A stretch of 63,961 bases of DNA, counting the filler, from Reclinomonas americana ATCC 50394 (Eukaryota), in assembly GCA_048213135.1 (NCBI GenBank). It is 6 parts of 4 records of this genome, joined end to end, with 100 filler letters (N's around TTAATTAATTAA, not from the genome) between each part and the next. Parts side by side here need not be neighbours in the genome. Positions count along the whole stretch, not along the records: positions 1 to 14,471 come from PS015129.1; positions 14,572 to 39,620 come from PS015131.1; positions 39,721 to 47,361 come from PS015131.1; positions 47,462 to 56,753 come from PS015131.1; positions 56,854 to 62,771 come from PS015132.1; 1 more part is not named here. The stretch is one strand, 5' to 3'. The first letter of the stretch is position 1, and every line of letters starts with the position of its first letter. Position numbers and translations under genes: made by a program. This document shows positions 1,881 through 60,600 of the stretch, piece after piece. The notes below the pieces were generated by a model. It saw only the letters and a list, made by a program, of their open reading frames with translations, was not told the origin of the DNA and did no database searches.

Positions 1881-2533
1881 ATGTCGTCGCCCGTCTCAAC
1901 AACACCCTCATCGCCATCCATGTCCTCCGCTCCGCCTGTCACTGTCGGAGTCGCTGCGGCTGCTGCTGCGGCTGCTGCTGCGGCTGCCGCCCGCAAGCAG
2001 AAGCGTGGGCGCCAGGTGTGTGTGAGCGCGCGCGGAAAAGGAGTTTGCAATCGCGTCATCGCTCACCTCTCTCTGCCCCTCTCCTCCTGCACAGAATGTC
2101 ACTCGTGCGTGCTTGGCCTGCCGGAAGTCACAGTTGCGTAGTGGTGCTGTGTGTGTGCGGGAGGCAGTTGTGATTTGTTTCTTTTCCGATCGGAAGTCCC
2201 TCTGTGTGTTGCTGTGCTTCTCGGGCCTTGTCGCAACGGTTGTTCCGTGAGGCGCGAAAACTAATTTGCACTCCCTTGTGTCTTGTCTTTCTCCTCGCCT
2301 ACACACACCTACACACACCCACACACGCACTGCTGTGGGGTGTGTCTGTGTGTGATCACTCCTCGCTGTCGTCAGCGGCTATTTTTCTCTGGACTCCGAC
2401 GTGTGGCAACCACTCGCTGCTTTTGGTATACTCCGTCCGCGTTGCTTACCCTCGCTCTGTCTCCCTCTCCCCGCAGTCTGGCGTGCGACTTTGGCCGACC
2501 ATGCCGTCGCTGCCTGCAAAAGGGCATTTGCTG
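1881..2533 (+). CDS. Zn(II)2Cys6 binuclear-cluster transcription factor, 5' part
   Basis: Exons 1881-2015, 2095-2132 and 2477-2533 splice to RKQKRGRQNVTRACLACRKSHLACDFGRPCRRCLQKGIC, the CxxC-x6-C-x5-CxxC pattern with a basic leader. The rest is lost at the 2543 gap. Confidence 0.88.
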
Positions 2534-2676
2534 GTGAGTGTGNNNNNNNNNNNNNNNNNNNNAATGCGTGGTGTTGTTGTTTTTGTGCGACCGTCGACGA
2601 GAAGGCAGTCGCATTACGATTCTTCCTTCCCTGCGCTGTCCTCTGTCAGTCGTTTCTCATCTCTCCACCTCTCCAG

Positions 2677-3813
2677 GTACACGCAGTGGACGAGACACTG
2701 TCACCCACCGACCGCGCAGAGTGTCGCTCCCTGATTGGCTACGTACACGATCGACTGGCACCCTGCATCTCCTTCTTGTGGTGCAGCATCGAGCGTTTCG
2801 TTGACGCGCCCATGAATGCGATGGCTTGCAGCGTGCTGACACACGCACGCACGCACAGAGAACTGGGATTCACAAGTGTTCCCGGCGTTGTGCGAGCACG
2901 TGTCGTACTTGCAGTCGTGGTATGTACCGCAGCGGATCTACAGGTTTCACAAGAAGCGGCTGGAGGCCTCGTCGCACTATTTCACCCTCGTCGGGTCGGT
3001 GACAACCACCGAGGTCAGTCGGCAGCTGCAGTGTGTGTGCTCGACGCGCCGCACCCGTTCATTAATCGCTTCGGCGGGCAGGTGGTGAGCACGGCTCGCG
3101 AGGCGTTGCAGGTGCTGAACGAGCGCCTGGGTGACAAGAGCTTCTTGTTTTCACGCACTCGACCATCGTCGGCCGACGCCGTGGCGTTTGGCCTCCTGGC
3201 GTGCATACGCCAGCCGAACTTCCTCGTGAATCCCCTGCTGACCTTGCTGCGCGATGAGGTGTGTGTTGTGACGATGTAGTGGCAGTCGCCTTGCGCCGTC
3301 CTGCTCACACATTGTGTGTCGCTGCAGTTCCCACGCCTGTTCGACTACTACGACCGCCTCTCCGGGCAGTACTTTACCGACATGGAGGAACTCCGACGAT
3401 CCGAGAAGTGCGCACTTCGATCTCCACTCCTTCATTCATTGGCCTGTTCACCCCCTCACCGCTCCATGCAGGAAATCCCCCATTACCACTGGTGCCAAGC
3501 CGGGAGAGGAGGTGAGCGGGTCGAACCCCGACGAGGACGAGTATGCGAGGAATCGCAGATTTGCCTTTTGGTTGGCATGTTGCGTGATGACTTGCACCCC
3601 ATTCCTCCGCCATCGTCGCCATGCTCATTCGTTGTGGTAGTGGGCGGCCTGGCGACCTATGTGGTGGCCCAACTAATGAGCGAGTGGGAGAAGCACGATC
3701 CGGCCATGGGGCGCGTGCGGCATCCAGCCGTCAAGGAGGACGATGAAGAGGACGATGACGGCGGGGACGACGACGACGACGATGACGACGACGATGATGA
3801 TGATGACAATTAA
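2677..3813 (+). CDS. Metaxin-1/Sam37-like mitochondrial outer-membrane protein (GST-C-like domain plus C-terminal TM), N-terminus missing
   Basis: Spliced product contains LSPTDRAECRSLIGYVHDRL...ALQVLNERLGDKSFLFSRTRPSSADAVAFGLLA...FPRLFDYYDRLSGQYF, then RNRRFAFWLALGGLATYVVA (TM anchor) and an acidic tail; TAA at 3811-3813. Confidence 0.85.
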
Positions 3814-3917: not shown

Positions 3918-6900
3918 CTACTGCATGTCGTGGAAGGCAGTGGCCAGGGACATGGCATGCTTGGCATGAGCGAGTGCGGTCTTCAGTCGATTCCGTGCGT
4001 ACACCACCGGGCAGTCGATGGAGGTGCACTCGACTGGTTCGAAGCGAACTCCCATCGAGCCCGCCTCGCATGCGCCACAGACGGTGAACAGATCGTGTTG
4101 CTTCTTGTCCAGCATGCGCAATCGGGCCGCCAAGTACGGCAGGTACGTGTCGGCCTTGGCACACCGCTCACAAATGTCTGCCCCGGCGGTCTCCGCCTGC
4201 ACCACGATCCACGAGTCAGTCGAGCTCCCTCTCCATGTACACACACACACATACACACGCAACGTCGCATGCCAGGCAACGCCGTGGCGTGTAAAACTCG
4301 TCAATGGTGCGCGCCTTGCGACCCTCCGACGCCTTCACTGATCGTCGTCGTCGCCACTTGACATCGCGAACCACATGTGGGATGACTCGCCACCACTCGG
4401 CCACGCTCATACCCGACTGCGCCAAACACGCGAAGGCATGTGAGCGTGATACAGCGTGCACGCTTTCATATTTAGGCACTCACCACTCCCAGCACGCGGT
4501 CGAGGGCCGGCAGAATCTGTCGCGTAATGTAGTAGTAGGCGTCCACTCGGCGGTCCTCGCGCAACGCATCCGCCGGATCGTACACGCACTCAGACGGACG
4601 CTGCCCTGGCTCGCCGAGAGTCACCACAAAGGGCACGCGCTGCAGGCGGCCAGCATGATGATCAGTGCGCTTTCTATATTTCCACCCTCTCCTGACTGCC
4701 TACGTACCTCTCCGTACGTGGGTTCCGCACGCCGATCCTTCTTCATCTTGTTCGCGGCCACCAGCACGGCAAACGGCTTGGTTCCGCGTTCGCTGCACAT
4801 ATCGCAGATGCATAAATGGAACGGAGAGACACGTCGACAACCCAAGACAGCACAGCACAGCACACCTGTAGCTTCCCATGCGCACAGTCTTGAAAAAGAC
4901 AAAGTCCATCAGCGACACGTCGCCACGTTGAATGCGCTGCAGCTGCGAGACGACGTAGTTCTTGACACGCGTGCAGTCGAGAGTGCCAAACAGAATGCTG
5001 CGCACACATGTGTCGCGTCATGATCAGCCAAAAGCCACAGTGCGCACAGTCGGTGCATCTCCAGCACAACTCACCGAAGTGCATTGTGCATCATCTTGAC
5101 CGTGGCTGGGCACTGATCGCGACGAATCGTCTCGATGCCCTTGGCGTCCAGTGTCGGCACTTTTTGCGACTGCGATTCGTAGCACTGGCCAACGTAGCGC
5201 TTCTTGGTCACCATAATCGATGGCAGGTACACCTTCTCCAGTTGCAGCTTCATCGGCGGTGGGTGGCGTGCCGTGACGGCGGCGACAATCTCTCGACCGT
5301 ACTCAAACGCCCGCTCCAGACTCGCTCCACGCATCAGCACAAACACGCTGTCTGTGTCGCCGTACACAACCCGTGCATTCCACTGCGTGGGCGTACACAC
5401 AATGAACACACGGAGTAGATGAAGGAAGAACGAAAAACAGGTGCACACGCACCCGTGGCTCGCCCTCAATGACACGCACAGCATCCTCCAACGCCGCTCG
5501 CCCGTACGCCACAATCGAGTCGGCAATGTCGGAGCATGGCATGCGACCGGAGAACGATGCCGAGGTGTAGCCGTAGGTGACGTTGGCGATCATTTTGAGG
5601 CCAAACTGGCGCGAGTCGAGAATGCGATGGAGGACGCGGTTGCCCTTGGCGCGCTTCATCGAGCGCTTCACCATGACGCGTGTGTCGAGAATCTCCTTCA
5701 GCATGCGTGGCAGCACGCCCTCCCTCACCTCCTTGTTCAAGTAGATGATGCCGTTGGGCGACACTGCACAATGAGGGAAGGAGCACACAATGAAAACAAG
5801 AAAACCACATGCCGCATGCCAAGTGCAAGCGAGATCGCACCGTGCAGGTGCTCGCCAAACTGGGCCAGTGTGCCCGGAGGCAGCTCGTACTGCTCCATGG
5901 CACCGAGTCGCTTCGGGCCGAGCCGCGCCTTGCCCAGCACAGTGGAGAAGCTGCGGGTTGCGTGTTAGCGAGGAGTGCACACGACAGTGGACACATTGGC
6001 GACGCACCACAAGTTGTGTCCGATGACAATGGACGGATACAGGGAGCGAAAGTCTAGCACCGCCACAGGATCCGTGTACAGCGCCGAGTGCGGCTCCATC
6101 ACCAACGGAATCACCTCGATGGCATTCTGATTCGACACTTGCGCTTTGGACGGCGACAGTGCAATGTACCCCGACGGCTTGGCGATGCGCAGCATCATGC
6201 TCTCCACGCGATACTGCGAACCACGGGAGACTACGTTGAAGAACTCGATGCCGTAGATACGAGCCAGCTCACTGAGTGGTGCACACGCAGTAAGCGAATC
6301 GTGAAAGCTGCAGTCATCGAAAACGCGGCCAACCTGGTACGATTGATGACATCGAGCTCCAGGAGCACACGAAAGGTGAGTGCGATGCGCCACACGAGCA
6401 GTCGCAGAACACGCTGATGCAGGGACGGTGCTGTCGGCCGCTTGTACCACTCGTTCAACACCTCCCACGTATACGCCGGCACACTGGGCGACGGAGAGAG
6501 AGAGTGATGTGAGCTCACACTCTTGTACGACAGCGACAGATGGCGCAGGCAACCGCACCGTCGGCGCAACACCTCCCACACAATCGATTCGAAGGAGTAG
6601 GAGAAGAGGTTGAGCTCACCGCGCAGCATGCGACACACATTGAGGACGATACGGCCCGTCACACGGATGCCACTCTGTTTCCGTCGGCCCCACTCGTCCA
6701 CGTCCACTCTGGCGCCCCCCACATGCATGTAGTGAGCTTTCGAACAGGATGTAAATGATCCTCTGCCACACACGCAACTTGGCTGGCGCGTTGCCGAACT
6801 TGGGTCGCACGCGGAAACGCGAGAGAAACTCGCACAAGTTGCCCCAACCTGTGTGCAGGGCCACTTAAGTGCGCGCACAAGAGTGACACACGCGCGACAC

Positions 6901-9900
6901 AAATAATCACGAACCGCACATCCAACAGCGCTCAAACAGATAGCCCAACGAACGCTGCTGTATCTCGAAGCCGCACAAGACGTCAGGATCGGTGACGCGC
7001 ACAATCTCGATGAAGCGGCCAAACATGGTTCTGCGAGACACCATCTCATGTGAGGTGGCATTCTCCCGAAAGGCAGGCAGGCTGGCAAGGAAGGGGGGTG
7101 GCGCACTTTTCATCCTCGCAGTGTACCACATGAGTGACACCCCACCGCGACACGCCCGACGTGCTGCGATAGCCGACAGGCTGCGGTGGCACGGCGTCGT
7201 TGATCAGCAGACACATGAATTTGCTTGGCGTGTCGGCCTCGATGCACTCGGTGGTGTTGTACAGCGCCAGACAAATCAACAGCACAGGATCCAGTTCCGG
7301 GTCCGGCAGCAAGTCTCCTCGTGAATCCACTACCCCCCAAGCAGTCAGCAAAGACAACGGGGTAAACAAAAGAGGACTCGCGATGACGAAACTGTGCGTG
7401 TCCACGCAGAGGCAGCGCAAGTGCGGGATCAACAGGCCGGATTCAGTGCGTGCTTTCTCGGCCGGTTGGGCCTTTTGCTGCTGACGCCGTTCAGCCTTTT
7501 CGTTGACCACCTCATGAACGGGTACCTTTGAATCGCGTGGCGGCCCAACCCCGTCATTGGCGCTGGCCATGGTTGGCGCACTCAGCACCTGCGACGGATC
7601 GTAGACCGCCGTTGGCAGGGCGTCGGCCACCGCCATGTCCACGCCAGGTGCCTCGGCGAAAAACTGGACCACTTTCTCGGGTCGCGGAAGTGGAGCTGCC
7701 ACGTACGAGCTGGGCGTGGTGGTCACAGCGGCCGCCAGATCGACCAGCAGTTCGGCGTTGGTGGGCGGTCGTCGTGCCGGAGTCAGCGTCCTGCGCCACA
7801 GCAACGCACTGACGTTTGGCGGGCGGCGCTGACGCTCCTGCACTGCGCGCATGACTCTGCTCATGGCGCCACCAAAGGCCACCGTGATGGCCGGTGGCAG
7901 GCACGTCGGCAACAAGCAGCGAGTGACCGGTGCCACACCGTAGCGCTCTTGCACCTTGTACACGCTACGCGGATTGCCAATGCCGCTCTCCGATCGACTG
8001 CCGCCCGTCACATGTGGTACATCGGCCTCCACCGTGTAGTGTGCAGGCTGCAGTGCGCACACGACTTGAGTGGACGACAGGGACTTTGAGAGGGGGAGGG
8101 GGCGCTCACCTTGTTCTCAGTGTACAAATGTCCCTGCAATGTCAGCGAGGCCAGCAAGTCGGCGTTGGGCGGTGGCCGCAGGGCCGCCGATAGCCGTACA
8201 TGCTGGCCACGAAATCGCGAAATGGGGGCAATCTTCATCCACGGCACGCGTGGTGCAGGTGGCGGTGCTGGCGGTGGCAAGAGAGGCGGCGACGGAGCAG
8301 CAGGAAAATCCTCCGCCGCTGCCTCGCCCGACGGATTCAGCTCCAGGCGCCGCACAGCAGTGCGCGTGAACGGCATCGCTGCGCGCGAAACCAACAGCTG
8401 CGACGGCGAGTCGCCAAGCTCGCCGAGCACTTCACGGATCGGTCGGCGAGTGGGCGACGGCTCTGCCAACGAAATCATCGCCGGCGGCTGCACGAGCGGC
8501 GGCGACAAGACGGGAGTGACAGGCGACTCTTCGTCCGATCCGTGCGCTGGTGTAGCAGCAACTGCTGGTGGTGGTGGCGGAGGTGGTGGCGGAGGTGGAG
8601 GTGGTGCGGGTAACGGTACTTGCTCCAGAGAGGCCAATAGGCCGCGTGGCGGAGCAGCGGTCGGTGGCGGTGCAGCGCGCTCAGCCACACGCATCGCACT
8701 CATGCGATTGACCATCGAGGGTGGCGCGCCAGTGGGTGCGCGGAACGACGAGCTGCCGGGAACTGTCGTCGGCGGTCGTTGTTTTGCTGTGGGTGCTGAA
8801 GGCCGAGCAGGTACGACAAAGCGGCCGGCAGTGGCGTCGCGCTGCTCCTCGTCCGACCGGCGCAACATCTCAAGCATGGACACGCGCGAGGACGATGCTG
8901 AGCGCATCGGCGGTGGCGGTACAGCCGGCGGCGGAGGAGGAGGAGGGGGAGGAAGAGGCGAGGGGGGACGTGGTGGTGGTGGAGGAGGAGGTGGTGGTGG
9001 AGGTGCAGCGTCCACTTCCACTGGCTGCACGGGCGACTTGGCCGCTCGTTGCATCAGCACCTCATCAAAGCGACGGCTGATGGCAGGATGGTCCCACTGC
9101 GACAGCGAGTCAAAGTCGTCCACTGTCGCCGGCGGGGCCGGTGTGGATCCCACATCGGGTGACGGTGTGCGTGAACTGGACGCTGCCGGGGTCGTGGCTG
9201 TGGCTGGACTCGGCGTCCGTCGACGATGTCTGACCGTCGGCGGCAACGCCTGCGTCAGGTCCGGCACCTCCAGTGACGATCGCTTCCGATTCTGTCGTCG
9301 AACGTGGCGGAATGGGCTCGCCACAGTTGCCGCCGCCGCCGCCGCCGCCGATGACGACGACGATGACGACGACAACAACGTCGCAGCTGGTGAGGGTGGT
9401 GGCAACGGTGCAGGTGGAGGCATGCGTCGAGCGGCAATCTCCTCTGCGGTGAGAGCACGAGCAGCTTCTGGCTCATCGTCTTGCCCGTCCAGTTGCGAGA
9501 GTATGCCGAGGCGCTGCAATCCAGTTGTCGCGCTGGGTGGTCGCACCGCGATGCCGACGACAGCCGGCGATGATGAAGACGGCCGCGCAGCAGATTCGTA
9601 CTCCACATGGACACGTGCACCACCTCTGTCGCTCAACAAGCCCCCATCAAACTGCAACTCTGGCAAGATCTCCTCATCTTCAAAGAACGGGTCCTCCTGT
9701 TGCGTGCACTCTTTCAGCAAGCGAACCTATATAGCCAGCGCGAAGAACTGCAGCACATAAAACTCGCCTCTGCCAGGGGATCGCTCGGAAATCCAAACTC
9801 GTCATCCGTGTCGTCCGCCTCTCGGTCCTCCTCATGCTCCTCCCCGCCCTTGGCATCCTTCCACGACCGCTTACGGTCGGGCATCATTGGGCTGCATCGG

Positions 9901-11636
9901 TGACACGTTACGTACTGCGATAAAGTACGACAGAGAAAGGGGGCGACGCACAACAACGCACATGGATCGCAAGTATTCTCGTTGACTCTGCGACAGCTCC
10001 TCGTGCCAACGAGCAGCCTCACGTTCCTCACGCTCCACTCGTCGACGAGCCGCCTCCCCGGATCCACGAACAGCAAGTGGAGACCGCACGGCTGCACCGC
10101 CCCCCTCTTCATCGTCCTCGTCGTCATCGTCGTCATCGCCACCGTTCTCTTCCTCGTCACTCTGTCATTTTTCACGAATGAGCAACAATGAACACCGCGC
10201 GTCGAAGAATGGGACCAACTCAACATCCAGCTGTCGCATCCAGTCGAGAATCTCTCCACTTTGCGCGTCGCCACCGCCCTGACTGGCCTGCGATGAGACC
10301 GACAGACTGCCGGCGGTGACGGCGGCAGCCGCAGCCGCACTCTGGCCACCAGCCGCCGCAGCCGCACTGTCCTCTCGAATCAGCTCGAGCATGTGCTCCT
10401 GCCATGCGCTGGAGTTCACGGGGTACTTTGTGTGAACACACAGCACGCACGTATGCATGCACACAATGGCGCGCACCGTTCAATCGGTGTCTGGGAGGTG
10501 CGCGGTACGCGCTCAGGAGTGGGACTCGGTTGCGAAAACTTGACCTCCTCCTCACTGCCGCCGGTGGCCGCCAGCTCGGCCACACGCCGACCTCGCTCTT
10601 CCTGCCAAATAACGAATGAGGGCTCACGGATGCTCAACAAGTGTGAAACAACCATAACTCCGCACCCTCCACAAGCCGGCCAGGCTCTGCACGAGCTTGC
10701 TGTCGGCGGCACACTTGCGAATGTCGGCACGTGACAAGTCGAGCCGGTTGAGAATGTCGTCGGCCCACACGTCGCCCTCGAACCGACAATGACTCTGCTT
10801 GGCAAACTCGTTTACCCAATCGGAGGCCAGCGGGTCGGGACGTGATCGCCAGTGCACGGCGGTCTTGGGCATGCGCACCGTGTCCATGCCGTAGATACCG
10901 TGGTCGATCATGAACTGCAGCGCGTACGGCAAGTGCGCCTCGCACGGCTGGAACGGCACGCCGAATGCGCCACCGAGGAGCAGCGCCGCCACTCGGCTCA
11001 CAGCATTCGGATCGTACAGCAGAATCTGGTAGTAGAGCGCCTGCACTGGCGAGAAGCCGTAGAAAGGCCAGCCACGAATGACCCGCACATCGTGCACATG
11101 CTGCGTGGGACCCGACGCCGGCCGCGCATTCCACGTGGCCGTGCCGGTGGCGGCCGTCTTCTCCAGGTTGAGATTGGACAGCAGCTGCGCCTGTTCCGTG
11201 GCCATCTTCGAGTCCACGGCCTCGGCCAGTGTGCACGCCAGTGCCCAGATCACTGCAACGAATGAGCACAAGAGAGAGAGGGAGGAAGGAGGGCGGCGAC
11301 TCAACATTCATCGGAATCACTGCTGTTTTGCGGAATGCGTGTCGATCGCATCCCGTGCAACGTCGCCAGCAGCTGCGACACGGGCGGCACCGGTACAAAC
11401 AAGTACGGAAGCGCCCCATGAATGTGCAGACACATGGAGCTCGACGGCGGCAACTGCGACCGCAAAGACGGCATGGCTCCGCCACCGCCCACTGCAAGCA
11501 CAGGTTCCACAAAGTACTCGCCACCACCACTGGAGGAGGAAGCAGCAACTGGATCGACATCATCCATCAACTCGGCCGGCAACTCAATGCTTCCGCTCCC
11601 ACTGCTGGCAGTCGGCACTTGCAGCGACAACGATCG
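3918..11636 (-). CDS. REV3: DNA polymerase zeta catalytic subunit (B family), about 22 introns, extreme N-terminus in the gap
   Basis: Motifs CLHIHGALPYLF, EAHLPYALQFMIDHGIYGM, SRGDLLPDPELD, SRGSQYRVESMMLR, VLDFRSLYPS, LKMIANVTYGYTSASFSGRMPC, VVYGDTDS and KKRYVG; C-terminal CysA (CLAC...CERC) and CysB (CGAC...CTSIDC); long Pro/Ser-rich middle exon at 8110-9726. Confidence 0.97.
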
Positions 11637-12305: not shown

Positions 12306-14381
12306 CTCCTGCAAGTGGCGCCAGTGGAGGCGCACTCGCTCAATGCCCAGATCCGAAACCGGGCAGTACGCCGCCGACACACGGCGCAGATTCACCAGCG
12401 TGCGCAGCTGGTGCCAGCCAAGGTCACCGATTGCCGTGCGATCCAGCGTCAGATCGGTCAATTTCACAAAACGGCTCAACGAGGCACACGCGTCGTTGGT
12501 GAGCGTGCAGTCGTGCACATTGAGAGTCTCCAGTTCCACGAGCCCTATTTGTAACAGTCAGCACGCAACGGGGATAAAAGAAGAAGGGGAGGACGCAACC
12601 GGCGAGGGCGGCCAGGCCAACGTGCGTCAACTTGGTGGAGCCGGCATCCAGGTGGCGCAGTTTGCGCAGTCCGGCGAGGGCGGTAGAGAGGCCGCGATCG
12701 GTCAGCTTGAAACAAAACCCGACGCTGAGCCACTCCAAGGATGTCAAAACTGCGTGTTGAGACACCGAGTTAGCAAGCGCACCACAGTGTATCCAGATAG
12801 CCGAGTGGCGAACACACGCAACATTGCAGCGCCGCAATGGCCGCATCGTTCAGCTGCGAGCACTGCTCGAGGTCCAGCTTCACAAGGTCCTCACAGCCTG
12901 AGTGAGAGGGACACGATGAGGCAAGGCGACGTGTCTGTGCAAACCCCCTCTCCTCTCCCTCAATGCACACCTCGCAGACCCATGAGACCGTCGGTATCAA
13001 AAGAGGTGCAGCCCTTCAGCGACAGGGACTGCAGATGCGTGTGCGCTGCGAGCAATGCCAGCAAGAGAGGAAGCACAAACAGCCGTGTCAGCCGCGCGCT
13101 CCGCCACCACCACCGCCACCAACACGTGAAAGCAGGCACGCACCTCCAATCGCACACAATCCCTCGTTCGAGATGTCGGAGCAAAAATCGAGACGCAAGT
13201 GCCTCAGGTGCTTGGAGATGCACGACAGATCCGAGCCCTTGTGCACGCAACACAGCCGTCAACACGCGTAAACTTCATCACCCGCTCACATCCACGCACA
13301 TACCTGCACTTTGACGCAGCCAAGGAGCGACACGGTCTCCAACTCGGGCAAACCGTACAGATACGCGACACCACTGCACAGAAGCTGTGTCAACGCTAAG
13401 CACACAGTACCGGCCCGAATCAATCACACGCAACGAGTCCTCGAGAGCGTCGCAGTTGACAAACGACAGATTGGTGAGGTACGGGAAGTGAGCCACCAAC
13501 TGCCGCACATACTCGGCGTCGGTCTCCTCCGATCGCACATTCAACGAGGGTATACTGCACAGACGCGTGAGTGTGCTGGAATGGCGGCCACAAAAACCAC
13601 CACAACCGCCACGCAACTACAGGCCGTCGAATGCCGGCAACACCTGACGCGACAGCTTGCGCTTCTCACTCAACACGCGCAGCATCTCCGACACCACATG
13701 CGGTGGCAAGGTCGACACCTGCGCGCGATCCAGCAGCGCAAAGTGCTGCAGGAGCCACACAATACACAGATGCGCCAGTGTCTGTGCGCGCGAGGGGCGA
13801 GAGGGAAAAGAGTGTGAGAAAACGCGCCGCCTGTCCGAATCGCGGGATAACTCAACAACAACAGCGAGGAAAGGGGAGAGAGAGAGAGAGAACAGGGGCA
13901 CGCGGGAGAGACAGTTGCGCGTGTGTGTGCGCCACCACCGCCTCATGTCGCACACGGATATGGCGATCATTGTTCTCACCTGACCACCCTCATGCCCCCT
14001 CACAGACTCCTCATACAACTCCTCCGCCGCGGTCAACGTGTTGCGACGCTCGACCGCACACGAGTCGCCTCCACACGACGCACCTCCGTCCACCTCACTG
14101 CTCACATCGTCGGCCCACAGCACCGACGATGCCACAGAAGATGACGATGAAGAAGACGACGACGAGGATGAGGCCGGCGACAGAGGCAACATGAGCAGCA
14201 GTGAAGGCGAGGGCGCGTCTCGCAGAATGTCCACTGAGAACGAGTGCTGCATGGAGCCATCGCCACCGGGAGTGCTCGAGGCGCGACGGCGGTTGCCTCC
14301 AAGGCGGGAACCCGATGAGGACGACGAGGAAGAGGAACGGCCGTTACGGCGTCCACGAAGGCACCCACACAGTGCGCCCAT
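12306..14381 (-). CDS. RNI-like/AMN1-type LRR protein with N-terminal acylation motif and BC/Cul2-box-like segment; 3' end in the gap
   Basis: MGALCGCL start; TLAHLCIVWL...LPPHVVSEML; Cys-containing LRRs (LTNLSFVNC, LETVSLLGC, LQSLSLKGC, LVKLDLEQC, LEWLSVGFCFKLTDRGL, LETLNVHDCTLTN). Confidence 0.85.
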
Positions 14382-18266: not shown

Positions 18267-20174
18267 CTGCGCCACTCGGCGGCCTCGATCGTCGAGAATG
18301 TCGGCTGCGTTCGCTGGATTGTCGCGCGGTGTCAAGCGATTGAGGTTGTCGGCAATCTTCATCTCCAACTCGGTGTTTTGCCAGATGGCTCCATCGGTCA
18401 CCTCTGGCCACGACAGCGTCGGTTCCACAGCGTCGCTCGCTGCGTTCGACACACAAGTAGGGTGAGCAACTATCGTTAAAACTTGTTCTGTGTCTGTCAG
18501 TGGAGGCAGACGAAACCTGGAGCACTCGGTGGTGGCCGCTGTCGCAGCGATGGAGTGCCGACTGACGATCCGCGGCGTGCACTGAGCAGACCCATGCCAG
18601 TGTTGGCGACACCGGACTCCCACGACACCTGACCGGGAATGAGCGGCACCACGTGCATGGCGTTGCTCTTGCGTTTCCTGGCCACCACTGGCGGTATGAC
18701 TGGCAGGCGCTTCTTCTTCTTCTTCGGCACCGGTGCGGGCTCTGCGGGTTTCCGGCGCACCTTGGCCACAGTGCGCCTTGTCGGCATGCTCTTCTCCGCC
18801 CTCTCCTCCTCCTCTTGTGCCACCTCGCTTTCGTCATCCTCTTCCTCGTCTTCCTCCTCTTCGTCTTCTTCGTCATCATCATCGTCATCGTCGTCACTGT
18901 CATCCTGTTCGTACGCGGCCAGCAAGTCACGCGTCTTGTCGATCAGCACTCGGCCAAACAGGCCGCGCCACGTCAGGTTGACCACGTGGCTGGCCGAGTA
19001 CTTGTTCACAATGTAGCTGTGAGGGGCACGTCGGTGAGGTGAGCAACAACACCACACAAAATGAGATGGGGGTGAAGAGAGCGCAACTCTCGCAAAAACG
19101 TCTCGAGCATCTTGTCGTGCTCCAGACTGCGCAAGAACGCCAGCTGCTCCGGCGTCGGTGCCGTCCTCAGCTCGCCATTGCTGGACTGGCGCGACAATAC
19201 CTCCAGCGCCGACTGCAACCGCATGGCCTCCTCCGCCGACGCGTCGCCAATCACCTCCTGAATGCGATTCTCCCAGTATGCGTGGCGGCCGGGCGTGTGC
19301 AACAGCTTATCCCGCCGCATCTCCTGATACACCTCCAGCAGCGCACGAAGGCGCGCGGCATCCTTTTGCCACGCCTCCGCCAATTGTCGCAGATCCTCGT
19401 CCTCCAGCTCCACCACTGCCGACTGAATCGTCTGCAGGCGAGAGAACGACTCAAGCGCACTCTCCAAATACTCGACCGCGGTCGGCAGCACCGGAAGCAC
19501 CGGTTTCGTTTCGCACACACTCTGCACGTCATTGTCGACCGACTCTGCGCGCGCGCGAATGATTGAGAACCGCAGCAGACAAACCTCCTTCAGTGCTGTT
19601 CGAGAATAACAATACCATCGTGTACTCTCCGGATCCAATCATTCAACGAGGCGACTCCATCATCGCGACACTTGACACGCTCCAACGCGGCCTTCCTTCT
19701 CTCCGTGCGCCACTCCTTGTAGCACTCCTCGCTAAACGTATCCGAATCCAGCGACAAGTTGTCCTCCTCATCGTCCGCGCCTGCTGCTGCGTCCCGAGGT
19801 GCGCTATCCTCCTCCTCCAACAGTAGCAGGACAGAATCATCACTATCCGCAACCGGCGGCACCGTCGGTGTCGTTGATTGGTTCGGCTCGTCATTGATTG
19901 GCGGCGGTAACGGAATTGGCGAGAGGGTGACGACGGGTTGCGGCGACGCGTCGAGCACCACACTCAGATCGATCAACAACGCCGACGAAGATGGTGGCGG
20001 CGTGCTCGGCAACATCAGCAACAACGTCTCCTTCTTCTGTGCATCCTCGTTGTCTGCGAGGGTGTAGTCGACGACCGCCGCGAGTGGCTGACACGAATCC
20101 TCTTCTTCCTCCTCTTCGTCACTGAGCTGCCACGGTCTCACTTCGCCCACACTCGCATTGACTGCGAGATCCAT
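18267..20174 (-). CDS. Hypothetical protein with acidic tracts, a helical region and a PKKKKKR NLS-like motif; 3' end in the gap
   Basis: Long coding-like segments (MDLAVNASV..., EYLESALESFSRLQTIQSAVVELEDEDLRQLAEAWQKD..., VPKKKKKRLPVIPP) separated by short introns. Confidence 0.6.
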
Positions 20175-39357: not shown

Positions 39358-39439
39358 GTGCCGAGGGGGAAGGGAGGGAGGGAAAGAGAGCGAGGGAGGG
39401 AGGGAAGGGAGAGAGAGGGAGGGAGAGAGAGCCCAGCAA

Positions 39440-40793: not shown

Positions 40794-43700
40794 CTAGACA
40801 GGAAGGCCCTCACAGATACCGTAATTGCATACCCCAGCGCAGCATTCGCTATTGTCGTTGCAGCTCACGTTCGCAGCGCCGCAGGTGGCACTGCAAACCG
40901 AATAAACACAAAAACCTGAGCAACAATCAGCGCCGCTCATGCACGGGTCATTCAGCGCGCCACCGGTGCACGCCGGCGTGCACGTGTTGTAGGTGCATGA
41001 ATTCGAGCAGCATTGTCCGCTGGACGAGCAGCTGGCACCATCTGTCGCGCACGCGCACCGCGCAACGCCAGTGGATGTGGAGCACTCGCTGCCCTCGGCG
41101 CACTGCGCAATGATCGAGGTGGTGCCGTAGACGCACGTCAGCACCGCACGGCGGTTCAGCGAGCACGTCGTGGTGCCGTCGGGCAGCGTGCACACGCCGC
41201 AGTCGGAGCCGCCGTAGCCGGTGGGGCATGTGATCGGAGCGCCCTGCGCCGCACGACCAATCGCCACCCACGTCACGTACACAATGTCCGACACGTCCGA
41301 GCCGCTGGCGTTGTACGAGATCGCCGTCACGTAGTCCTCGTTGCCGAGGCGCCTGGTGGTGAACTGCAGCGACGACTGATCGACGCGGTTCTGCACAATG
41401 ACTGCCGACGACTTCCAGCCGCGCAGGAACAGCTGAATGCCAAGGGTGGCGCGCAGCAGGCCGTTGGGGGTCGACGACGTCACCAGGCTGGCCGTCTGCG
41501 TGGTGGCGGCGCCGGGGTGGGTCGTTTCTGGACAAAAGTATTTTAGACAAAATTTCGCAAATGCAGAGGTGGGTGACAGGACGCACCACCCGACAGCATG
41601 ACAAAGCCGCTGTTGTTGGTGTTGTCGGGGCGAGTCGGCGCCACAGCAAAGCGCGCAGACACCGCCTCCATGCGCGAGTCGCCGCTCACCGTGCCCTTGA
41701 TGACAAAGCTGGTGCGCGACGCCGAGCTGCTCGACAGCGAAAAGTTGTCACCGCGAACGCGTCCGTCGTTGCCGACAGCCGACTTGCGGATCGACAGCAC
41801 ACCAATGACGGCCACGGGAATGGCCGGCACCGACGCAAACTGGTACGCCGACGACACGCTCACCAACTGCGCAGACGGGGAGTGAGTAGTCTGACCAAGA
41901 GGCAAGAATCTCCAAACAGACACGCAACAGATGGGCTGTTCTTGTTCAGCGCATCCGTCACCCACGCCTTGCTTGTCAGCGTGCGCTGACCGTCCATCGA
42001 CAGAGCATTGGTCTGGTGCACGTAGTACGCCAGATAGCCTGTATCATGGAAAAGAGATGAGCCACCTTGCCGTGCCTTGTCCTCTATCGCAGTGAACGCA
42101 ACTCAGAGTGATGGTGGGTCCCACTTGCCCGGAAGTCGACACACCGTAGCAACGAGTCGACATCCTCGCCACAGTCACCACCGGCTCAGCGCAGAAGGCA
42201 AAGGTGCCGTCAGCCGGCTCGTTGGCCAGAGTGGAAATCGGCGCGGCCTGCTGGTTGCCGACACTGGCAAAACCGATCAAGACACGCGGGCGGCGGAAGA
42301 ACTCGCTCGCAAACGTCAACTGAATGGTGGTGGTCGTCACCGCCAGTGTCGACATGCTCGGCTTCGCCACGTCAGCGGCCAACGGAGTCGATGTGGGAGT
42401 GGGGGCGCTCGTGTTGAGACCGCCGTCGGTCATGAAGCCGGAGACAAACGACTCCTCCGCCGATTCGTACGGTCCGTTGTTGGCCGCCACACACAACTTG
42501 TAGGCACCGCCACCGCGAGAGCCGTTCGGGGTGATGTTTGCGCGGAACAGGCGGCAGCCGGTGATGAACTGGCACGCATCGGCGCCGCTGCGCGTAAACA
42601 CCGCACCGACACTGCCCGTCAGCGTCGAGTAGTCCGACAGGGTGGAGCAGTCGGCGCCGGCCGGAACCAGCTTGAAGCTCGTGCAGTCGGTGAGGTTGTC
42701 AGCCGACGAACCAATCACGATCGAGTTGGCACTGCCGTACTTGAGCACGGGCGGATTGGCAAAGGAGACCACGGGGGTCGACGAGGCAGAGGTGACAACA
42801 ATCGGGACCGTTTGCAGGCGGTAGACGGCGGTGCCGCCGGCCTGGAACCTACAAGAGGGGAAGGGTGAGAGGGGGAAGGGGAAGGGAGCAGGAGAAGGGA
42901 AGGGAAGGAAAGGGAAGGGAAAGGGGGGAAGGGAAAGGAAGGGGAAGGAAGGGGAATGGAAATGAAGCGAGAGGACAGGAACGGGGAAGGGGAAGGGGGA
43001 AGAAAGGGAGACGAGGACAAAGAGCGACAGCGGCACAAAAATTGTGGTATAAAGGATAAAGATGCCTGACAACAGCACCAGCAAAAGGGTTGGAGAAAAA
43101 GAAACAACAGCGCTAGACAGATAGAGGCGGCCAACGGAGATGCACGGAGAGTTGATCATAAAAAGGAGGGAGACGCCAGACACGCGCAGCACCAAAGAGA
43201 TGAGCATAACAATACCTGTCACTACCCTCCTTCTCTCTCTCTCTCCCTCCCTTCCCCCACGTGGACGCAACTTGCCACACAGATAGTACACGCCCGGCGA
43301 CGCCAGCGTGCAAGAGCCAGTCGCCGTCGCACCCAACGCGCCCTGCGCAAACGAGGCACCAGTGGCCACCGAGAACACAGCCTGGAGACCAGACGGGTCG
43401 CTGGACTGCAGCGAGGCGCTCGAATTGGGCGCCGCCGCGCCGCTGCAATCCGCAGCGGCGTACAGGCCAAACGAGCCACCGGCGCCCAGCTGACGGTTGG
43501 CAAAGTGCTGGCCGGCCACCGTCAGGCGGTAGTCGGCGAGACCGTTCACCAGCTGCGGCGAGCGGCTCTGCGTGTTGATGGTGTCTGTGTGACGGGAAGA
43601 TGATGAGTGTCCATGAAAGTCGACATGTTTCTGATCTGATGACCACTGCACGCAACAGACAAACACAGTGGCCACATACTCGTTGCGGGCGGCCGTGCCA

Positions 43701-44338
43701 GCACCGTCAACGTCAATGCACAGGTAGCGCTCACCGCCGTTGCCGTCGCCCGACGCATTGAAGGTGAGCGAGGCGGCGGCGTTGGAGTTGACGACAGTGG
43801 TGGGAGAGGTGCCGGTGCACGAGCGGTCGAGGAAGAGAGTGGCGGTGGAGGAAGTCGACCAGGCGATAGCCGAGCCAGTGACACTAATGTTCACGATCTG
43901 ACCAGCGACACCGGCCTTGATGGCGATGTTGCTCGGAGAGATGACTGCGCCAACAACAAAAAAAAAGGAGTCAACGGCCAGGAAAAAGAAGTGTCGAAAA
44001 AGGACAGGAGGAGCCAAAGGCGGGAAACCAGCAAACATGCTTGGAAAATGCACACAGCGCGCGCGAGCCAGGCACGTGCACGGTTGCAATGACACAGCCA
44101 AGTAAATCGACGAGAAAAAAAAAGGCGCGAGAAAAGTTGCGCGGGAAAACAAATGCAACAAACAAAAATATGCAGCAGATTGCGCGCGAAAATGTTGAGT
44201 GGGTGCTTGCGTGTGAACGTGTGTGTGTGTGTGTGTGAACTCACATGCGGCGGATGCAGTGCTGCACAGCACAGCAAGCGAGAGCAGTGCGACGAGGCAC
44301 AGCGCGGAGGCGGAGCGGAGGAGAGTGGGGGCCGACAT
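40794..44338 (-). CDS. Secreted modular protein: signal peptide, Ig-like beta repeats, three H-type-lectin-like domains, EGF-like motif, three cystine-knot-like repeats
   Basis: MSAPTLLRSASALCLVALLSLAVLCSTASA; LTFASEFFRRPRVLIGF...LSYLAY; YQFASVPAIPVAVIGV...SRTSFVI...ARFAVA; ...VYVTWVAIG; CPTGYGGSDC; three C-x6/8-C-x5-CC-x3-C-x4-C units; TAG at 40794. Confidence 0.8.
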
Positions 44339-50700: not shown

Positions 50701-51286
50701 GGGGCGCACTAAATGGGGGAAGGGGAGGGGGAAGGGAAGGATGAGGGAATAAGAAGAAGAGAACAGAAAGAACGTAAATGAAGAAAGGATAAATGAAGTG
50801 GAATGGGGGGAGGGAGTGAAGGGGGAAGGTTAGGGCAAACAAGACAGACAAGGCGGGAACGAGTTGCTGAAGAAGAAAAACTGAAGGAGGAAATGATTAG
50901 AAGAAGAGGGACGAGAGATGCGTCACAGAGAAGCTTGCACAAGGGGAAAAGAGGGTACACGCAGCGATGGAGAGGGGAATTGGTAATGAGGGGATTGAAG
51001 GAGAGGGTCGGGGAAAGAGAGAGGGCGAGTAGAAACAAAACTGACAAGGAGGGACTGCGATGGGAGAAGAGAAAAGGAGAGAGCGGAAGACATTGGAGGC
51101 AGAGAAACATGAGCAAAGGCACGCGGAGAAGAAGGCTGCATCTGTTTCCAGTTCAAGACACGCAACAAGTCGACGACTGGCCACCACCACCCCCTGATGA
51201 CGCCACCGCCGCCGCCATGGCAGCCGCCGACGCTCCAGTCACCGGTGAGGCCATGGACGCGGGAACAATTGATAATGCGCCGGAAG
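47780..51286 (-). CDS. ATRIP/Rad26/Lcd1-like protein, N-terminal part
   Basis: Acidic motif EDDFGDLDFEDIGEEQLAEI and coiled coil DDELSVREGKIRVLEGSL...VENVRAQIKFRDERIREI resemble the ATRIP K-x-GEI-x-ILR...L-x-FKD-x-E pattern (compared from memory). Confidence 0.62.
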
Positions 51287-51558: not shown

Positions 51559-51648
<90 letters not shown>

Positions 51649-55867: not shown

Positions 55868-57652
55868 GATGCCATCAACAAGTACACAAACGCAGCGAAT
55901 TGTAAACACAACACTTCATTCACCACATTCCGGATCCAATAATGTGACAAACGCCCACAAATATTAATCCCTTGCCGACATTTTTACCGGAGATCACCAC
56001 ACAACAATTGGCCAGTTCAAAGTTGGTGTGTTGTCGCAGCTGAATTCGAATGTGTGGTGCCAGCCTTCGATATCTTTGTGCATGTGCAATTGCAGTCTGT
56101 ACATGTACATACGGTGCTTTGTGCACGTCAGGGGCTGGCTGGCCCGCGGGTTGGCGGACTTGCAATTGCTCAGCCTGGCATGCAGCTGCAGAAACGTCAG
56201 CAGGTCGGCTCAAAAAAAAAACGCAAAGAGAACAGCACCGCGCTGCTCATCCACACTCACTGGCACGCCGCACGCCGCTCTCCTTTGTGCAAACGACACG
56301 ACCTCTTACGTTTGTCCCACCGACCCTCGACGTTCGTTGCAAACTCTCACCCACACTCATGGCCGGCGTTGTCGCACTCTTCGTGCAAGACACCGTGACA
56401 CTAAAGAACGTCACTCTCCACTCGTTTCGTCAGACACACAAGCCGGCAAACACAAAAGTGTGAGAGATGGCGCGCGAAATGGCTCACTTTCTTGTCTCTC
56501 TTTCTCTTTGTGTGTGTTTGTGTGTGTGTATAAACAACAACACAGGAAATCTCTGTCTTTGCGCAAGGCGTTTTTGCTGTCGCAAGCTTTTGGCAGGCAG
56601 ATTGTGCAAAGGAGGAGTCGAAATGGCGCGCGATTGAGGTAACGTGTGAGTGAGTGAGTGAGAGTGAGAGTGTGTGTGCGAGAGAGTGAGAGTGAGAGAG
56701 AGAGAGAGAGGAGGGAGAGTGCATGCAGTATTGCTCAGTGGAATGATTGACTANNNNNNNNNNNNNNNNNNNNNNNNNNNNNNNNNNNNNNNNNNNNTTA
56801 ATTAATTAANNNNNNNNNNNNNNNNNNNNNNNNNNNNNNNNNNNNNNNNNNNNAGAGAGAGAGAGAGAGGCGTTCGAGGCACGCATGCAACAGGCACGAG
56901 AGTGGCACTATCTCCACAGTCACTCTTCACAGACAACGGAACACGCGCGAGAGAGAGACACACGACTGCTCTCTCTCTCTCTCTCTCTCCCTCTCCTTGC
57001 ACATGAGCCTGTCTCTCTCACGCAGGGACGGGGTAACGAGGAGAGACGCAGTACAGCAGGCAGTCAGCATACTCTCCCCCCTCCCTCCCTTCGCTTTCTC
57101 TCTCTCTTCTCTCTTCACTCACTTCTCTCCTTCTCCTTGTCTCTCACGCACTTCCTTGTGCCTCTCTTCTCCCTCGTCTCAGTATCTTTTCTCTTGTTCT
57201 CTTCCCCTTCGCTCCAACTTGCTGTCTTTGTCTCTCTCCTTCTCTCCCCACCGCGCGCTTCTTGTTTGTGTCTCGCTCTCCCATCTACTCTCTCCTCTCT
57301 GTCTCTCTTTGTGTGCCCTTGCCTCACACCCTCCCTTGTCACTCTCCCTATGTCTATCAACAGTGCGTCGCTCTCTCACCTCTCTGCCTCTGTCAGTGTT
57401 TCAATCTCCTCCTCCCTGCTCTGCCTCCCCACACTCTTCTTGTGTGTCTGTCACCGTTTTTCTATTGTCATCTTTCACTGTTCCCCTCTTCATCACCGCT
57501 TTTCTCGTCTTGTCTCTCACACCGTTCTTCTTCTTTCCTTTTTCTTCCGTTGCTCAGTTCTTCCCTCCCTCCCTCTTTTCTCTCCTCTCTCTCTTTCGTC
57601 TCCTTTCCTCTTTCTCTCTGTGTCTTATCCCTCTCTTTGTTTGATTTCGCAG

Positions 57653-60600
57653 ATGGCGCTTCCCATTGTTCCGTCAATTCCGTGCGCACTGCATGCTGGT
57701 GGGCTCGGTGTATCTGGTGGCGGTGGCCGCGGATGATCAAGCAGATTTTGAGGTGGATATTACGTTGAGACAGGCGCGAGAGTTGCGTGGCGAGTGTGAT
57801 GGTGGTGGGGCGCGGGAGCGAGGGCCAGGAAAAGGGAGAGTGATTCTGTGTGACGGACGCACTGTCATTAATCGTGACTGACACTGCCGTTCTCTGTGTG
57901 ACGGACGCGCTCTCGGTTTCTGATCATGTGATGAGAAAGACCCGTTTTCGTCCGCTCTCACGCGCTCCCGTCACCGCATTCGTCTCACTGCTCTCTCATC
58001 TTCTCCCACTCATTTCCTCCTCTCTCACATGCACACTCCACACTCCATATCGCATCACGTAGTGCTGTGCGTGGACCCTGCACGTGTTGTTTGGCTGCCT
58101 TGCATTCTTGTCTCTCTCTCTCCCTCGGCCATGATTCATGCACACTCGCGCTTGCCCATCACGAAAAAGCAAAATTTGCTTTCACATTCATGCTCCCGCC
58201 ACACCCTGTCCTCCTGACCTCTCTAATTCCTGTGATTCTCTTGCGCGACACAGTGTGGTCATCAGTTCAGGTGGGCGTGCTGGGCAGGACGTCAACGCAG
58301 CCGCGTTGGCACGCCGCGGCCCGAGTTTGGTTATGGTTAGCTCTGTGTCTTGTGCCTCTCACTATCCATTTCAGTCCCTCTCCCTCACCCTTTCCCGTCC
58401 ACGCGCGCAGGCCCTGGAGGAGATCCTCCACGTCCGCGGTGCCACCGACACTGCGCGCGTGCTGGCCCGGAAAGACCGCGATCCGCTGTACTTGGAGACC
58501 GACGTCACTCCTCCCCAGTACACGCCGATCGTGGCCGAGGGAGGCATTCCGAGCAAGCACGCCATTGCNNNNNNNNNNNNNNNNNNNNCCTCCTCTCTCT
58601 CTCTCTCTCTCTCTCTCTCTCTCTCTCTCTCCTCAACCCACCTCATTACTCGAATGACCGGGCATGCCGTACACTGAACGCGTGATCTTCCAAATCTCTT
58701 CTCTCTATCACTCATTCTCACTCTCACATTCACCTACCTTGCTCTCTCCCCCTCTCTCTCCCTCCCTCCTACTCTCTTTTCTTTCTCTCGCTGTCTGTCT
58801 GTGCCTCTTTCTCTCTCTCTCTCTCTCTGTTGTATCTTTTCTGTTGCTGTCTCTGTCTATGTCTTTTGTCAATTTGCCTATCACTCGATGGTCGGCCGTG
58901 AACATCATCCTACTAATGGAGCACATGATCGCCTCAAATCTTTACTCTCTCGACGCATACACGCACCCTCCTTGTCTGCTACCTGTGTACTTGCTGCTCT
59001 TGTTTCTCTCCCTCTCTGTCTCCTCCCCTGTTAACTAACCTCTCCTCTCGACGGCCGGTCATGAACACCGTGCTACGCACGGAGGTCGTCATTTGTCGAA
59101 TCACATTCCGTTTTAAATCACATACAACGCACACGCGCGCTCCGTATCTGCTTCCTGTATGCTTCGTGCTCTTGTTTCTTTCCCGCTCCCACCATGTTCT
59201 CCCATTCTTTCTCCCTCTCTCTCCTCTCCTCTCTCCTTCCTCTGTTGTCAATTTACCGCATATCTCGACACTTGGAGCACTTGATCCTTCCAATTCTCGT
59301 CCCTGTCTCAACACACATATGCACACGCAGACACACCCTCCTGGTCCACTGCCTGTGTCCTTCACTTGTTTTCTCACTTTCTCTCACCCTTCCCTCTCTT
59401 CCCACTCTCTTCCTCTCTGTCTCCTGTCAATTTACTCACCTCTCGATACTCGGAGCACAATTCTCGTCTCTCTCTCAACACAAATGCACACGCACCCTCC
59501 TTGTCCGCTGCCCGTGTCCTTCTCTTGTTTTCTCACTGTCTTCCCCCTTCCCTCCTCCCCTCCCCTCGCAGAGTCATGGGTCTCCGCCGCGCCGACAGCG
59601 TGGTCATCAACGAGGACGTACTGTCGGGCATGAAGGCGGCCTCCGTGTCGAATGTGTCGGAGTTTGGCGCCGCCTTTGTGGCCCCCACCTTGTCGCACCT
59701 GAGAAGAGCGCACGGTGAGTCACCACTCTCTACATTTAATATTCCGATCACGACGGTGGATTTCTGCAAATGTCCTTCTGTGATATTCTGTCTCTTTGTA
59801 CCGTGCAAGAACCTCTCGCCCTTGTGTTTCCTGACTCTGCCTTGGCGCGCTGCAGGTGGCGCCTTTGAGACCGACAACGCGCTCAGCTCGGCCTCCGAGG
59901 GACCCTCTGGCTCCGCCTCCGCGCCCATCTTCACTCCCACCGCCGCCACGGCATTCACACCTTCCGGTGGCTTGTCGCTGACACCCACACCGCCGGCGAC
60001 GTTCACGGCCCCGGTGCCCACCAAGCCCACCATTCCTATTCGTTGCGTGTGTTTTGGCAAGAGATGGTTGACAATCTGTGCGAATCTCATCTCTCGTGTG
60101 TTTTTTTTTTGTGTGCACAGCCGTCAGTCGACCGAGCTCCGAGTCCCTCGACTCGTTGGGCACTCCCACCGACCTCCGGCGGCAACCGTCACCAGCTCCT
60201 GTGGATCCCAAGCGCAACAGCATGAGTGTGACTCCGCCGCCACTGAATGCCGTGCCACCGCCCATGGTCTCTGCGCCGCCACTGCTGTCCGCCAAACCGC
60301 GTGGGCATGATCGACAGCAGTCGGGTTCCATGAGCCTCTCGCCGAGCGCATCGCTCACCGGCCTCGGCGGCGTCAGCATGATGGAGCTCGCCGGTCTCAA
60401 CGCCCCCGCTCCCATTCTGTCTGCCCTGCCGGCGGCGCTCGACAAGATTGAACTGCCGCCGTTGCCGGTTGTTGCGCCCTCATCGTACGACGACGACGAC
60501 GAGGACGAGCAGGATCCCGAGTACATGCGCCGCATCATGGGCTTCTCCACCTCGGCCCCGCCGCCCACACGCGCCGACTCGCAGGCCGCCGCCTCGGCCA

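Follow-up and report, generated by a model that had tools for sequence, protein, structure and literature searches.

How the spliceosome sets the exact cleavage point of a 5′ splice site (donor) after U1 small nuclear RNA (U1) has left, and whether U6 small nuclear RNA (U6) pairs out of register, is an open question; the first alternative U6 register has been reported for one gene (PMC11162779). This question is raised by a stretch of DNA from Reclinomonas americana ATCC 50394 (assembly GCA_048213135.1; 63,961 nucleotides, filler included, hereafter the window), in which many introns start with a donor, most often GTTGCGT, that has its conserved G at intron position +6 rather than +5. An initial annotation listed 30 such donors and proposed that they form a second, mainstream class next to the ordinary ones. 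Here, we find this shifted donor in about one-third of the introns that we modeled, tied to the identity of the last exon base, and we discuss how it might be read by U1. Positions count along the window, and a single signed coordinate for a donor gives its strand and the first base of its intron.

Results

A Shifted Donor Starts One-Third of the Modeled Introns

The window DNA is GC-rich and eukaryotic, with 6,940 N inside it, and consists of separate contigs joined by N44-TTAATTAATTAA-N44 linkers (14472-14571, 39621-39720, 47362-47461, 56754-56853, and 62772-62871); no gene runs on across any of these TTAATTAATTAA linkers. Gene models were built by hand from three-frame displays, and since the donor motif was used in this modeling, the donor logos that follow are partly circular. 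In all, 20 gene pieces were modeled, with 99 complete introns between them, every one stop-free; introns with an end in a gap, as well as -47132, were left out of the set. Three uncertain introns (-27529, +56458, and -46374) were removed, leaving 96, and then also +58330, which has two in-frame donors, leaving 95.

Of the 96 introns, 40 start with GTT. G is at +6 and not at +5 in 32 of these 40, compared with only 1 of the 56 others. In the final set, 31 introns are shifted and 64 ordinary (33% shifted, 95% interval 24-43%), which supports the idea of a mainstream second class. Eight GTT donors belong to the ordinary class, all of them after G and seven having G at +5, as do two GC donors. Two probable GC-AG introns were seen among the 96, one in REV3 (-9767..9727, 41 bases, G|GCGAGT) and one in LRR gene 2 (-25095..25035, G|GCAAGT), as were probable AAG acceptors at -13238 and -46308, one kept in the models and the other dropped as uncertain.

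The word GTT(G/T/A)(C/A)G was found at precisely the base given for 29 of the 30 listed donors, the remaining coordinate, 60041 (+), being off by one since the donor begins at 60042. Likewise, 29 of the 30 could be placed in stop-free models that close at a YAG acceptor; +21781 is left without an acceptor because the downstream exon probably lies inside the N gap at 22115-22975. Mixing with ordinary introns within a gene is as described: 5 of 21 REV3 introns are shifted (5 of about 22 had been counted), and so are 4 of 8 in the LRR gene at 12306-14381 (LRR gene 1), the number originally given. Beyond that list, the class gains -19087 and -18516, and one probable member, +39353, at a contig end.

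The Cut Falls before the First G of the Word

To locate the cut without the donor motif, we used a donor-blind gene parser composed of coding, intron, and acceptor models, with the donor limited to GT/GC, which was trained on chosen exon and intron interiors of the window. Among the 30 listed donors, the parser returned 21 as the best cut and 4 as alternatives, and missed 5. A frame test was then applied to the 74 introns whose acceptor and phase were fixed by the parser at a posterior of at least 0.9. When GTT(G/A/T)(A/C)G occurred near the donor, its first G was in frame in 22 of 26 cases (p 1e-7), and for GTTGCG(T/C) this was true in 16 of 17. In the same test, ordinary words scored 32/42, GT[ACG]GCG 1/6, and other GTT words 14/39. 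This shows that the inserted base is specifically T and that the cut comes before the first G. A cut after that G was in frame for none of the 17 GTTGCG(T/C) words and a cut at the GT of +6 for one, and only 2 of the 31 shifted introns have a YAG suiting a GT at +6. As an extra T within the intron leaves frames intact, these frame tests speak to the position of the cut and do not exclude a base-calling error.

Homology gives a more uneven picture. Cut variants were scored on profiles made from 27 named proteins for REV3 and 23 for RPAC1, and the GTT cut came out best at +20862 and +24007 in RPAC1 and at -7392 in REV3. At +24007 (24007..24067, T|GTTTCGT), where the conserved HFI-F had been said to fix the cut, it leads by 4.7 bits and leaves the HFIF motif intact. 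By contrast, the CLACD-AET cut in REV3, put forward in the same way, is not the top variant (62.0 vs 64.7 bits). Outside conserved motifs the test is blunt, since the model cut came out best in only four of seven ordinary control introns. The third protein argument concerns the Zn2Cys6 domain at 2133..2476 (+, A|GTTGCGT...CAG). The cut keeps the six residues between cysteines 2 and 3, as the cysteine spacing of this family demands, together with the His; the frame is of no help, as the short model is stop-free in all three frames.

Repeats offer an internal standard. In LRR gene 1, -12822 and -12599 share repeat codon and phase with the ordinary introns -13143 and -12970. In LRR gene 2, -26811 and -25249 match -27318, -27111, -25095, and the donor -26658, with -26968 one codon off. 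At individual sites, any later cut at -13617 produces a TAG stop, and taking the GT at +6 as the cut at -11305 would bring in a TGA stop. The feature is real at the DNA level, and we are highly confident that the cut comes before the first G.

Some variants of this picture were rejected. Cutting at a GC after GTT does not hold as a rule, because the next two bases vary (GC, TC, GA, AC), and at RPAC1 20862 a GC cut has a lower profile score (32.0 vs 36.7); at -4263, the top profile score goes to one GC variant with a GAG acceptor. A GTTTCGT at +56424 is more simply read as coding than as a donor. GTTGCGT is absent from the modeled exons, against 2.0 occurrences expected, which is not significant (p 0.13).

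The Shifted Word Is Nearly Fixed and Depends on the Last Exon Base

Two properties of the class had been overlooked in the initial annotation, the first of which is its dependence on the last exon base (-1). G precedes 53 of the 64 ordinary donors, whereas the base before the 31 shifted donors is A in 12, T in 10, C in 6, and G in only 3; non-G ends thus make up 11/64 and 28/31, respectively. Put the other way round, a shifted donor is carried by 28 of 39 non-G exon ends but by 3 of 56 G ends (p 5e-12). Measured against the base composition of coding sequence at matching codon positions, shifted donors are preceded by too few G (3/31, 10.2 expected, p 0.006) and too many A (12/31, 5.9 expected, p 0.01).

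The second property is that the shifted word is far more fixed than ordinary donors. Sliding by one base aligns the two classes, ordinary G|GTG(C/A)GT at -1..+6 lying over shifted |GTTGCGT at +1..+7. In this alignment, the position facing C9 of U1 is G in 53/64 ordinary and 31/31 shifted donors, and it is followed by G or T, then T, G, C, G, and T. The exact word GTTGCGT is present in 22 of the 32 shifted donors of the 96-intron set. C is found at shifted +5 in 29/31 but at ordinary +4 in 31/64 (p 1e-5), and T at shifted +7 in 28/31 but at ordinary +6 in 40/64 (p 0.007). Accordingly, information content at +4..+7 is 1.25-2 bits in shifted donors, compared with 0.3-1.8 bits in ordinary ones.

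In all other respects, the shifted introns look like their neighbors. All 31 start with GT, and they end in CAG (24) or TAG (7). The branch motif CT(A/C/G)A(C/T), sought 10-35 bases from the intron end, is found in 24/31 shifted and 40/64 ordinary introns, at median distances of 19 and 19.5, and short-intron lengths (66.5 vs 67.5) are the same in both classes. By their branch sites, lengths, and GT-YAG ends, the shifted introns are predicted to be major (U2-type) introns. Minor (U12-type) introns have RTATCCT donors and a CCTTAAC branch; this identity was rejected, since the donors are GTTGCGT-like and CCTTRA occurs in none of the 31. Nor are they introner-like mobile introns, because their interiors are unrelated (mean local similarity score 13.7 among shifted, 13.5 among ordinary, and 13.6 between the classes) and the junctions of 25 of 31 are free of any repeat.

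The shifted class accounts for a smaller share of the introns at phase 0 (6 of 35) than of those inside codons (25 of 60, p 0.02), at which the choice of the last exon base is limited by the protein. An origin by a one-base upstream slide of every ordinary intron was rejected, since the phases of shifted introns (6/16/9) do not track those of ordinary introns (29/22/13) moved by one. Finally, TAG acceptors follow 7/31 shifted but 2/64 ordinary donors (p 0.005), the seven being 3579, -7392, -12599, 31458, -43271, -25249, and -51166. This difference was singled out post hoc among about ten features and is best taken as a lead.

A Retuned U1 Could Read Both Classes

We computed duplex energies for U1 5′ arms on both classes, leaving pseudouridine and proteins aside and using variant arms that are hypothetical except for ACGUAC. 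The standard arm, as printed in PMC9311317, scarcely binds shifted donors, with -0.4 kcal/mol in the canonical register, -0.9 shifted, and -1.1 with a bulge, against -6.5 on ordinary donors; its gain from shifting (-0.9 vs -0.4 kcal/mol) lies between two negligible values. An ACGUAC arm gives -5.0 (shift) or -4.1 (bulge) on shifted donors and -8.4 kcal/mol on ordinary ones, and an ACGCAC arm -6.4 and -9.6 kcal/mol. Arms with A8 reach -9.0 to -10.5 on shifted donors but only -2.8 to -4.0 kcal/mol on ordinary donors. These energies indicate that a single arm with G5 can suffice for the two classes together, whereas an A8 arm would point to a pair of U1s.

With G5 arms, the shift register outscores the bulge for 24 to 31 of the 31 donors. 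The initial annotation had described an ordinary donor with one extra T and considered both shifted and bulged U1 pairing. The shifted donors fit the consensus of the window's own ordinary donors slid one base downstream, with cleavage at GU; an otherwise normal donor with one T looped out is the poorer match. A +2/+3 bulge would go on favoring exon-side pairing through G at -1, which is instead depleted, and for this reason we favor a shift of the whole helix. The enrichment of A at -1 agrees with the pairing expected opposite U10 of U1.

Our preferred explanation, to which we give a probability of roughly 58% on this sequence evidence, is that these are U2-type GT-AG introns with a donor that a U1 with a retuned 5′ arm reads in a register displaced by one base. 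The same part of the arm would bind both donor classes. At shifted donors, the G that opens the intron would replace the exon's last G opposite C9, so that the intron supplies all the pairing. Retuning would consist of a G at position 5 that reads the C, perhaps with C6 or A8, in the sole U1 or in a second copy. The least certain step is the hand-over, at which U6 would pair with +5..+7 and the extra U be accommodated in the stretch that separates the ACAGA helix from the active site, while U5 loop 1, Prp8, and proteins like KIN17/PRCC would locate the GU a base further upstream. U6 C42/C48 normally pairs with G at +5 (PMC11162779); given C at this position, U6 may pair one base further in, hardly pair, or be altered. 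The benefit of the shifted class would be to release exon ends from the requirement for G, chiefly inside codons.

Several points weigh against this reading. At four of the seven REV3/RPAC1 sites (-4263, -6778, -10224, and -11305), the GTT cut is not the best variant or the region is too variable for homology to decide. With the ACGUAC arm, the bulge is nearly equal to the shift (-4.1 vs -5.0) and is the best register for 5 of 31 donors, while the other arms were designed from the donors, which makes their fit circular. T at -1 (10/31) is unaccounted for by U10, and three shifted donors come after G. Furthermore, the distance from the cleavage point to the G paired by U6 C42/C48 is described as always five bases, the one reported exception deviating the other way (PMC11162779), so that U6 pairing in a +1 register, the part of the proposal of which we are least certain, would have no known precedent. 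Finally, an exact-pattern scan of metagenomes for U1 found none with a C6 or A8 arm.

That scan returned 21 loci, 20 of which were scanned with Rfam. Four of them (two distinct sequences) reach the U1 cut-off, and four others (again two distinct) are U1-like by eye; all eight have ACGUAC arms. Five loci with ACGCAAC or ACGUAAC were rejected as U1, four having no Rfam match and the fifth, L003, having been left out of the Rfam scan. The ACGUAC-arm U1 genes, among them L002 (1638-1803), L020 (740-906), L011, and L014, may come from up to four eukaryotes, two of them at the Rfam cut-off. By eye, no shifted donors were seen in the introns of L002, which are too few to count. In the window itself, an Rfam scan found no snRNA, with 20 weak matches and none at gathering score.

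Known Donors Share Parts of the Pattern

For atypical human 5′ splice sites, U1 pairing in a shifted (+1) register was reportedly described by Roca and Krainer in 2009. It is also set out in Tan et al. 2016 (PMC4856993) and in PMC11162779. As we propose for the window, the U1 helix of these human donors lies one base downstream while cleavage is kept at GU; the conserved G is at +6 in both. All validated noncanonical U1 registers make up 1.5% of human donors (3119/201,541), the +2/+3 bulge accounting for 54 (Tan et al. 2016, PMC4856993). We infer that the window donors work like this human minority and differ from it in frequency (about one-third of introns), in having a GCG word beyond the standard arm, and in being tied to non-G exon ends. 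The +2/+3 bulge register (Tan et al. 2016, PMC4856993) resembles them in that one U seems inserted after GU, but it keeps exon-side pairing useful, whereas G at -1 is depleted here.

Changed U1 arms have precedent in Archamoebae, in which arm and donor co-evolved, with AACAAAC for GUUUGUU in Entamoeba and ACGUAC for GUGCGC in Mastigamoeba (Roy and Bowser, 10.1101/2022.06.08.495308). The Mastigamoeba donor is like the window's ordinary donors in having C at +4, and that of Entamoeba is like the shifted class in having U at +3 and conservation out to +7. However, each of these lineages has a single consensus whose G sits at +5, the normal register, unlike the window, where two classes alternate within genes and one of them has G at +6. 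The intron-strong NN//GURAG donors of humans are anti-correlated with exon-strong ones (PMC11732430). A strong intron word at a weak exon end is also what we find, in the 28/39 against 3/56 given above. However, NN//GURAG donors keep G at +5, a base present in 0/31 shifted donors (by definition), 29 of which have C there. The word "shifted" is absent from the text of PMC11732430.

In Caenorhabditis elegans, the spliceosome can cut /G/UU sites before or after the G, including unc-73(e936) (PMC8865678), and the choice between /GU and /UU is biased by KIN17, PRCC, and SNRP-27 (PMC8865678, PMC6140464). These sites share with ours the GUU start and the two adjacent registers, and G is at +6 in 14 of 26 SNRP-27-promoted sites. 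They differ in number, being some tens or a single mutant allele, and in that cutting is mixed and no word is fixed genome-wide. A search of the accessible literature, including the strings GTTGCGT, GUUGCG, and GUUAAGU, found no shifted donor class at such a frequency, although supplements of protist genome papers could hold one. For the mammalian GUUAAGU donors invoked in the initial annotation, the search gave no paper.

Alternative Explanations

One alternative is that the true cuts are displaced, to just behind the first G, to the GT of +6, or to a neighboring ordinary donor, or that the extra T arose as an error of sequencing or assembly. At 7/31 sites, an ordinary-looking rival donor lies in frame within 30 bases, which would fit the former; /UU cutting of /G/UU sites is real in C. 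elegans, reaching 59% in a two-choice reporter (PMC8865678), and an intronic error would leave frames undisturbed. However, the frames of GTTGCG(T/C) words (0/17 after the first G, 1/17 at +6), the scarcity of suitable YAGs for the +6 GT (2/31), and the stop created by later cuts at -13617 speak against other cuts. As for error, 58 exonic H-GTGCG words keep intact frames although an error process would hit them, and error would neither alter base use at +5 and +7 nor depend on donor position or on the last exon base. We regard this alternative as highly improbable.

If cut and T are genuine, a dedicated second small nuclear ribonucleoprotein (snRNP) might read GTTGCGT in normal register, through a U1 paralogue pairing positions 8 to 2 with +1..+7 and perhaps a U6 variant, the shift being a mere likeness. 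The near fixation of the word (22/32; 1.25-2 against 0.3-1.8 bits) fits this view, as do the co-evolution of Entamoeba U1 with GUUUGUU (10.1101/2022.06.08.495308) and the energies, because a fully complementary arm reaches -10.5 on shifted but only -4.0 kcal/mol on ordinary donors, so that two U1s would be needed. It is nevertheless unlikely, as it leaves unexplained why the word equals an ordinary donor slid by one base and why G is avoided at -1, and shared LRR repeat positions, branch motifs, and lengths argue that the classes interconvert. A broader form, in which one U2-type spliceosome has two donor-reading channels, with a paralogous U1 for GTTGCGT, possibly a changed U6 or active-site protein, and the U6 ACAGA helix one base further in for a third of all introns, is a tentative proposal that we hold to be somewhat doubtful. 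Were it true, the rule of cleavage five bases upstream of the U6-paired G would be broken, and the TAG bias would show that an altered helix changes 3′ site docking. It is quite unlikely, in our estimation, that selection of the word is instead due to U6/U5 pairing or to proteins, as in a local intron-strong class with U+3 bulged from the ACAGA helix and a standard or marginal U1. Exon-side and intron-side strengths are indeed anti-correlated, as is characteristic of the known pair of donor classes (PMC11732430), and even within ordinary donors +3..+6 is strong in 11/11 after non-G but in 26/53 after G. The TAG excess would fit too, as the U6/donor helix forms the 3′ site receptor (PMC11732430). 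However, a standard U1 scarcely binds shifted donors, and the standard ACAGA box, as it appears in PMC11162779, puts A opposite the fixed C, leaving the C in 29/31 unexplained unless U6 is changed.

Shifted Introns across the Window

The shifted introns and their individual support are as follows, p being the donor-blind value. Next to the Zn2Cys6 intron on the plus strand, the metaxin-like gene has C|GTTTCGT at 2795..2858 (p 0.96, stop-free model) and T|GTTGCGT...TAG at 3579..3640 (p 0.72). In REV3, on the minus strand, they are C|GTTGCGT at 4197..4263 in the zinc finger (stop-free model, ordinary rival donors present, profile score not deciding), A|GTTGCGT at 6709..6778 (stop-free, in a variable region and not favored by the profile), A|GTTTCGT...TAG at 7330..7392 (top variant, with an alignment without gaps), and two T|GTTGAGT introns, at 10162..10224 (stop-free; homology does not decide) and 11253..11305 (p 0.82, with the TGA noted above). 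LRR gene 1, on the same strand, contains G|GTTGCGT...TAG at 12545..12599 and T|GTTGCGT at 12750..12822, both placed by the repeat, C|GTTGCGT at 13374..13434 (p 0.48, stop-free model), and A|GTTGCGT at 13555..13617 (p 0.85). The newly added minus-strand introns are G|GTTTCGT at 18440..18516 (p 0.88) and A|GTTGCGC at 19017..19087, which is in frame, the blind parse having preferred the in-frame -19099.

RPAC1, on the plus strand, has T|GTTGCGT at 20862..21419 (intron 1, with a 20-N gap inside; best of three profile variants, no alignment gap) and, besides the intron at 24007, the probable donor A|GTTGCGG without acceptor at 21781..21787. The best matches of RPAC1 and REV3 exons are about 45-71% identical and scattered over plants, fungi, and animals. 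In LRR gene 2 (minus strand), C|GTTGCGT...TAG at 25180..25249 occupies the repeat codon and phase of ordinary introns, although the blind parse took another frame, and G|GTTGCGT at 26743..26811 is backed by both p (0.94) and repeat position. By eye, imperfect tandem repeats lie at 28300-28860 and 26350-26600, inside or upstream of this gene. Further along the plus strand are A|GTTACGC...TAG at 31458..31523 (p 1.00), T|GTTGCGT at 34382..34448 (p 1.00), C|GTTGCGT at 34785..34855 (p 0.66), A|GTTGCGT at 35413..35474 (p 0.83) and 36064..36147 (p 0.95), A|GTTGCGC at 36516..36586 (p 1.00), and the probable C|GTTGCGT at 39353..39359 near the contig end (blind posterior 0.23). Those on the minus strand are T|GTTGCGT at 41867..41928 (p 1.00), A|GTTGCGT at 42039..42102 (p 0.99), A|GTTGCGT...TAG at 42849..43271 (p 0.38, ordinary rival 9 bases upstream), T|GTTGCGT at 43585..43656 (p 0.66), and T|GTTGCGT...TAG at 50709..51166 (p 0.86). 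The last two, on the plus strand, are A|GTTGCGT at 57782..58253 (stop-free model, ordinary rival 12 bases downstream) and C|GTTGCGT at 60042..60120 (p 0.71).

As regards the genes themselves, the start of the Zn2Cys6 gene adjoins the metaxin-like gene (window 1881-3813) over a 20-N gap at 2543-2562, which may be a mis-scaffold or a fusion. The Pfam match of the metaxin-like gene is confined to the GST_C exon (GST_C_6), and no homolog was found at E 0.001 and nothing useful in the PDB. The minus-strand gene at 44319..40900 encodes an 812-residue, secreted-looking protein with repeats, which matches no Pfam family above cut-off; in the Atlas, it falls in eukaryotic clusters, with a weak TIG lead.

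Implications

A shifted way of marking introns that is rare in humans is thus predicted for about one-third of the introns modeled here. One consequence would be that, in the Reclinomonas americana ATCC 50394 genome, many donors are wrongly placed by standard gene-finding programs. At this frequency, introns with G at +6 would provide thousands of natural substrates for asking how the cleavage point is set, and the organism would allow co-evolution of U1 and donor to be tested directly in a genome rich in introns.

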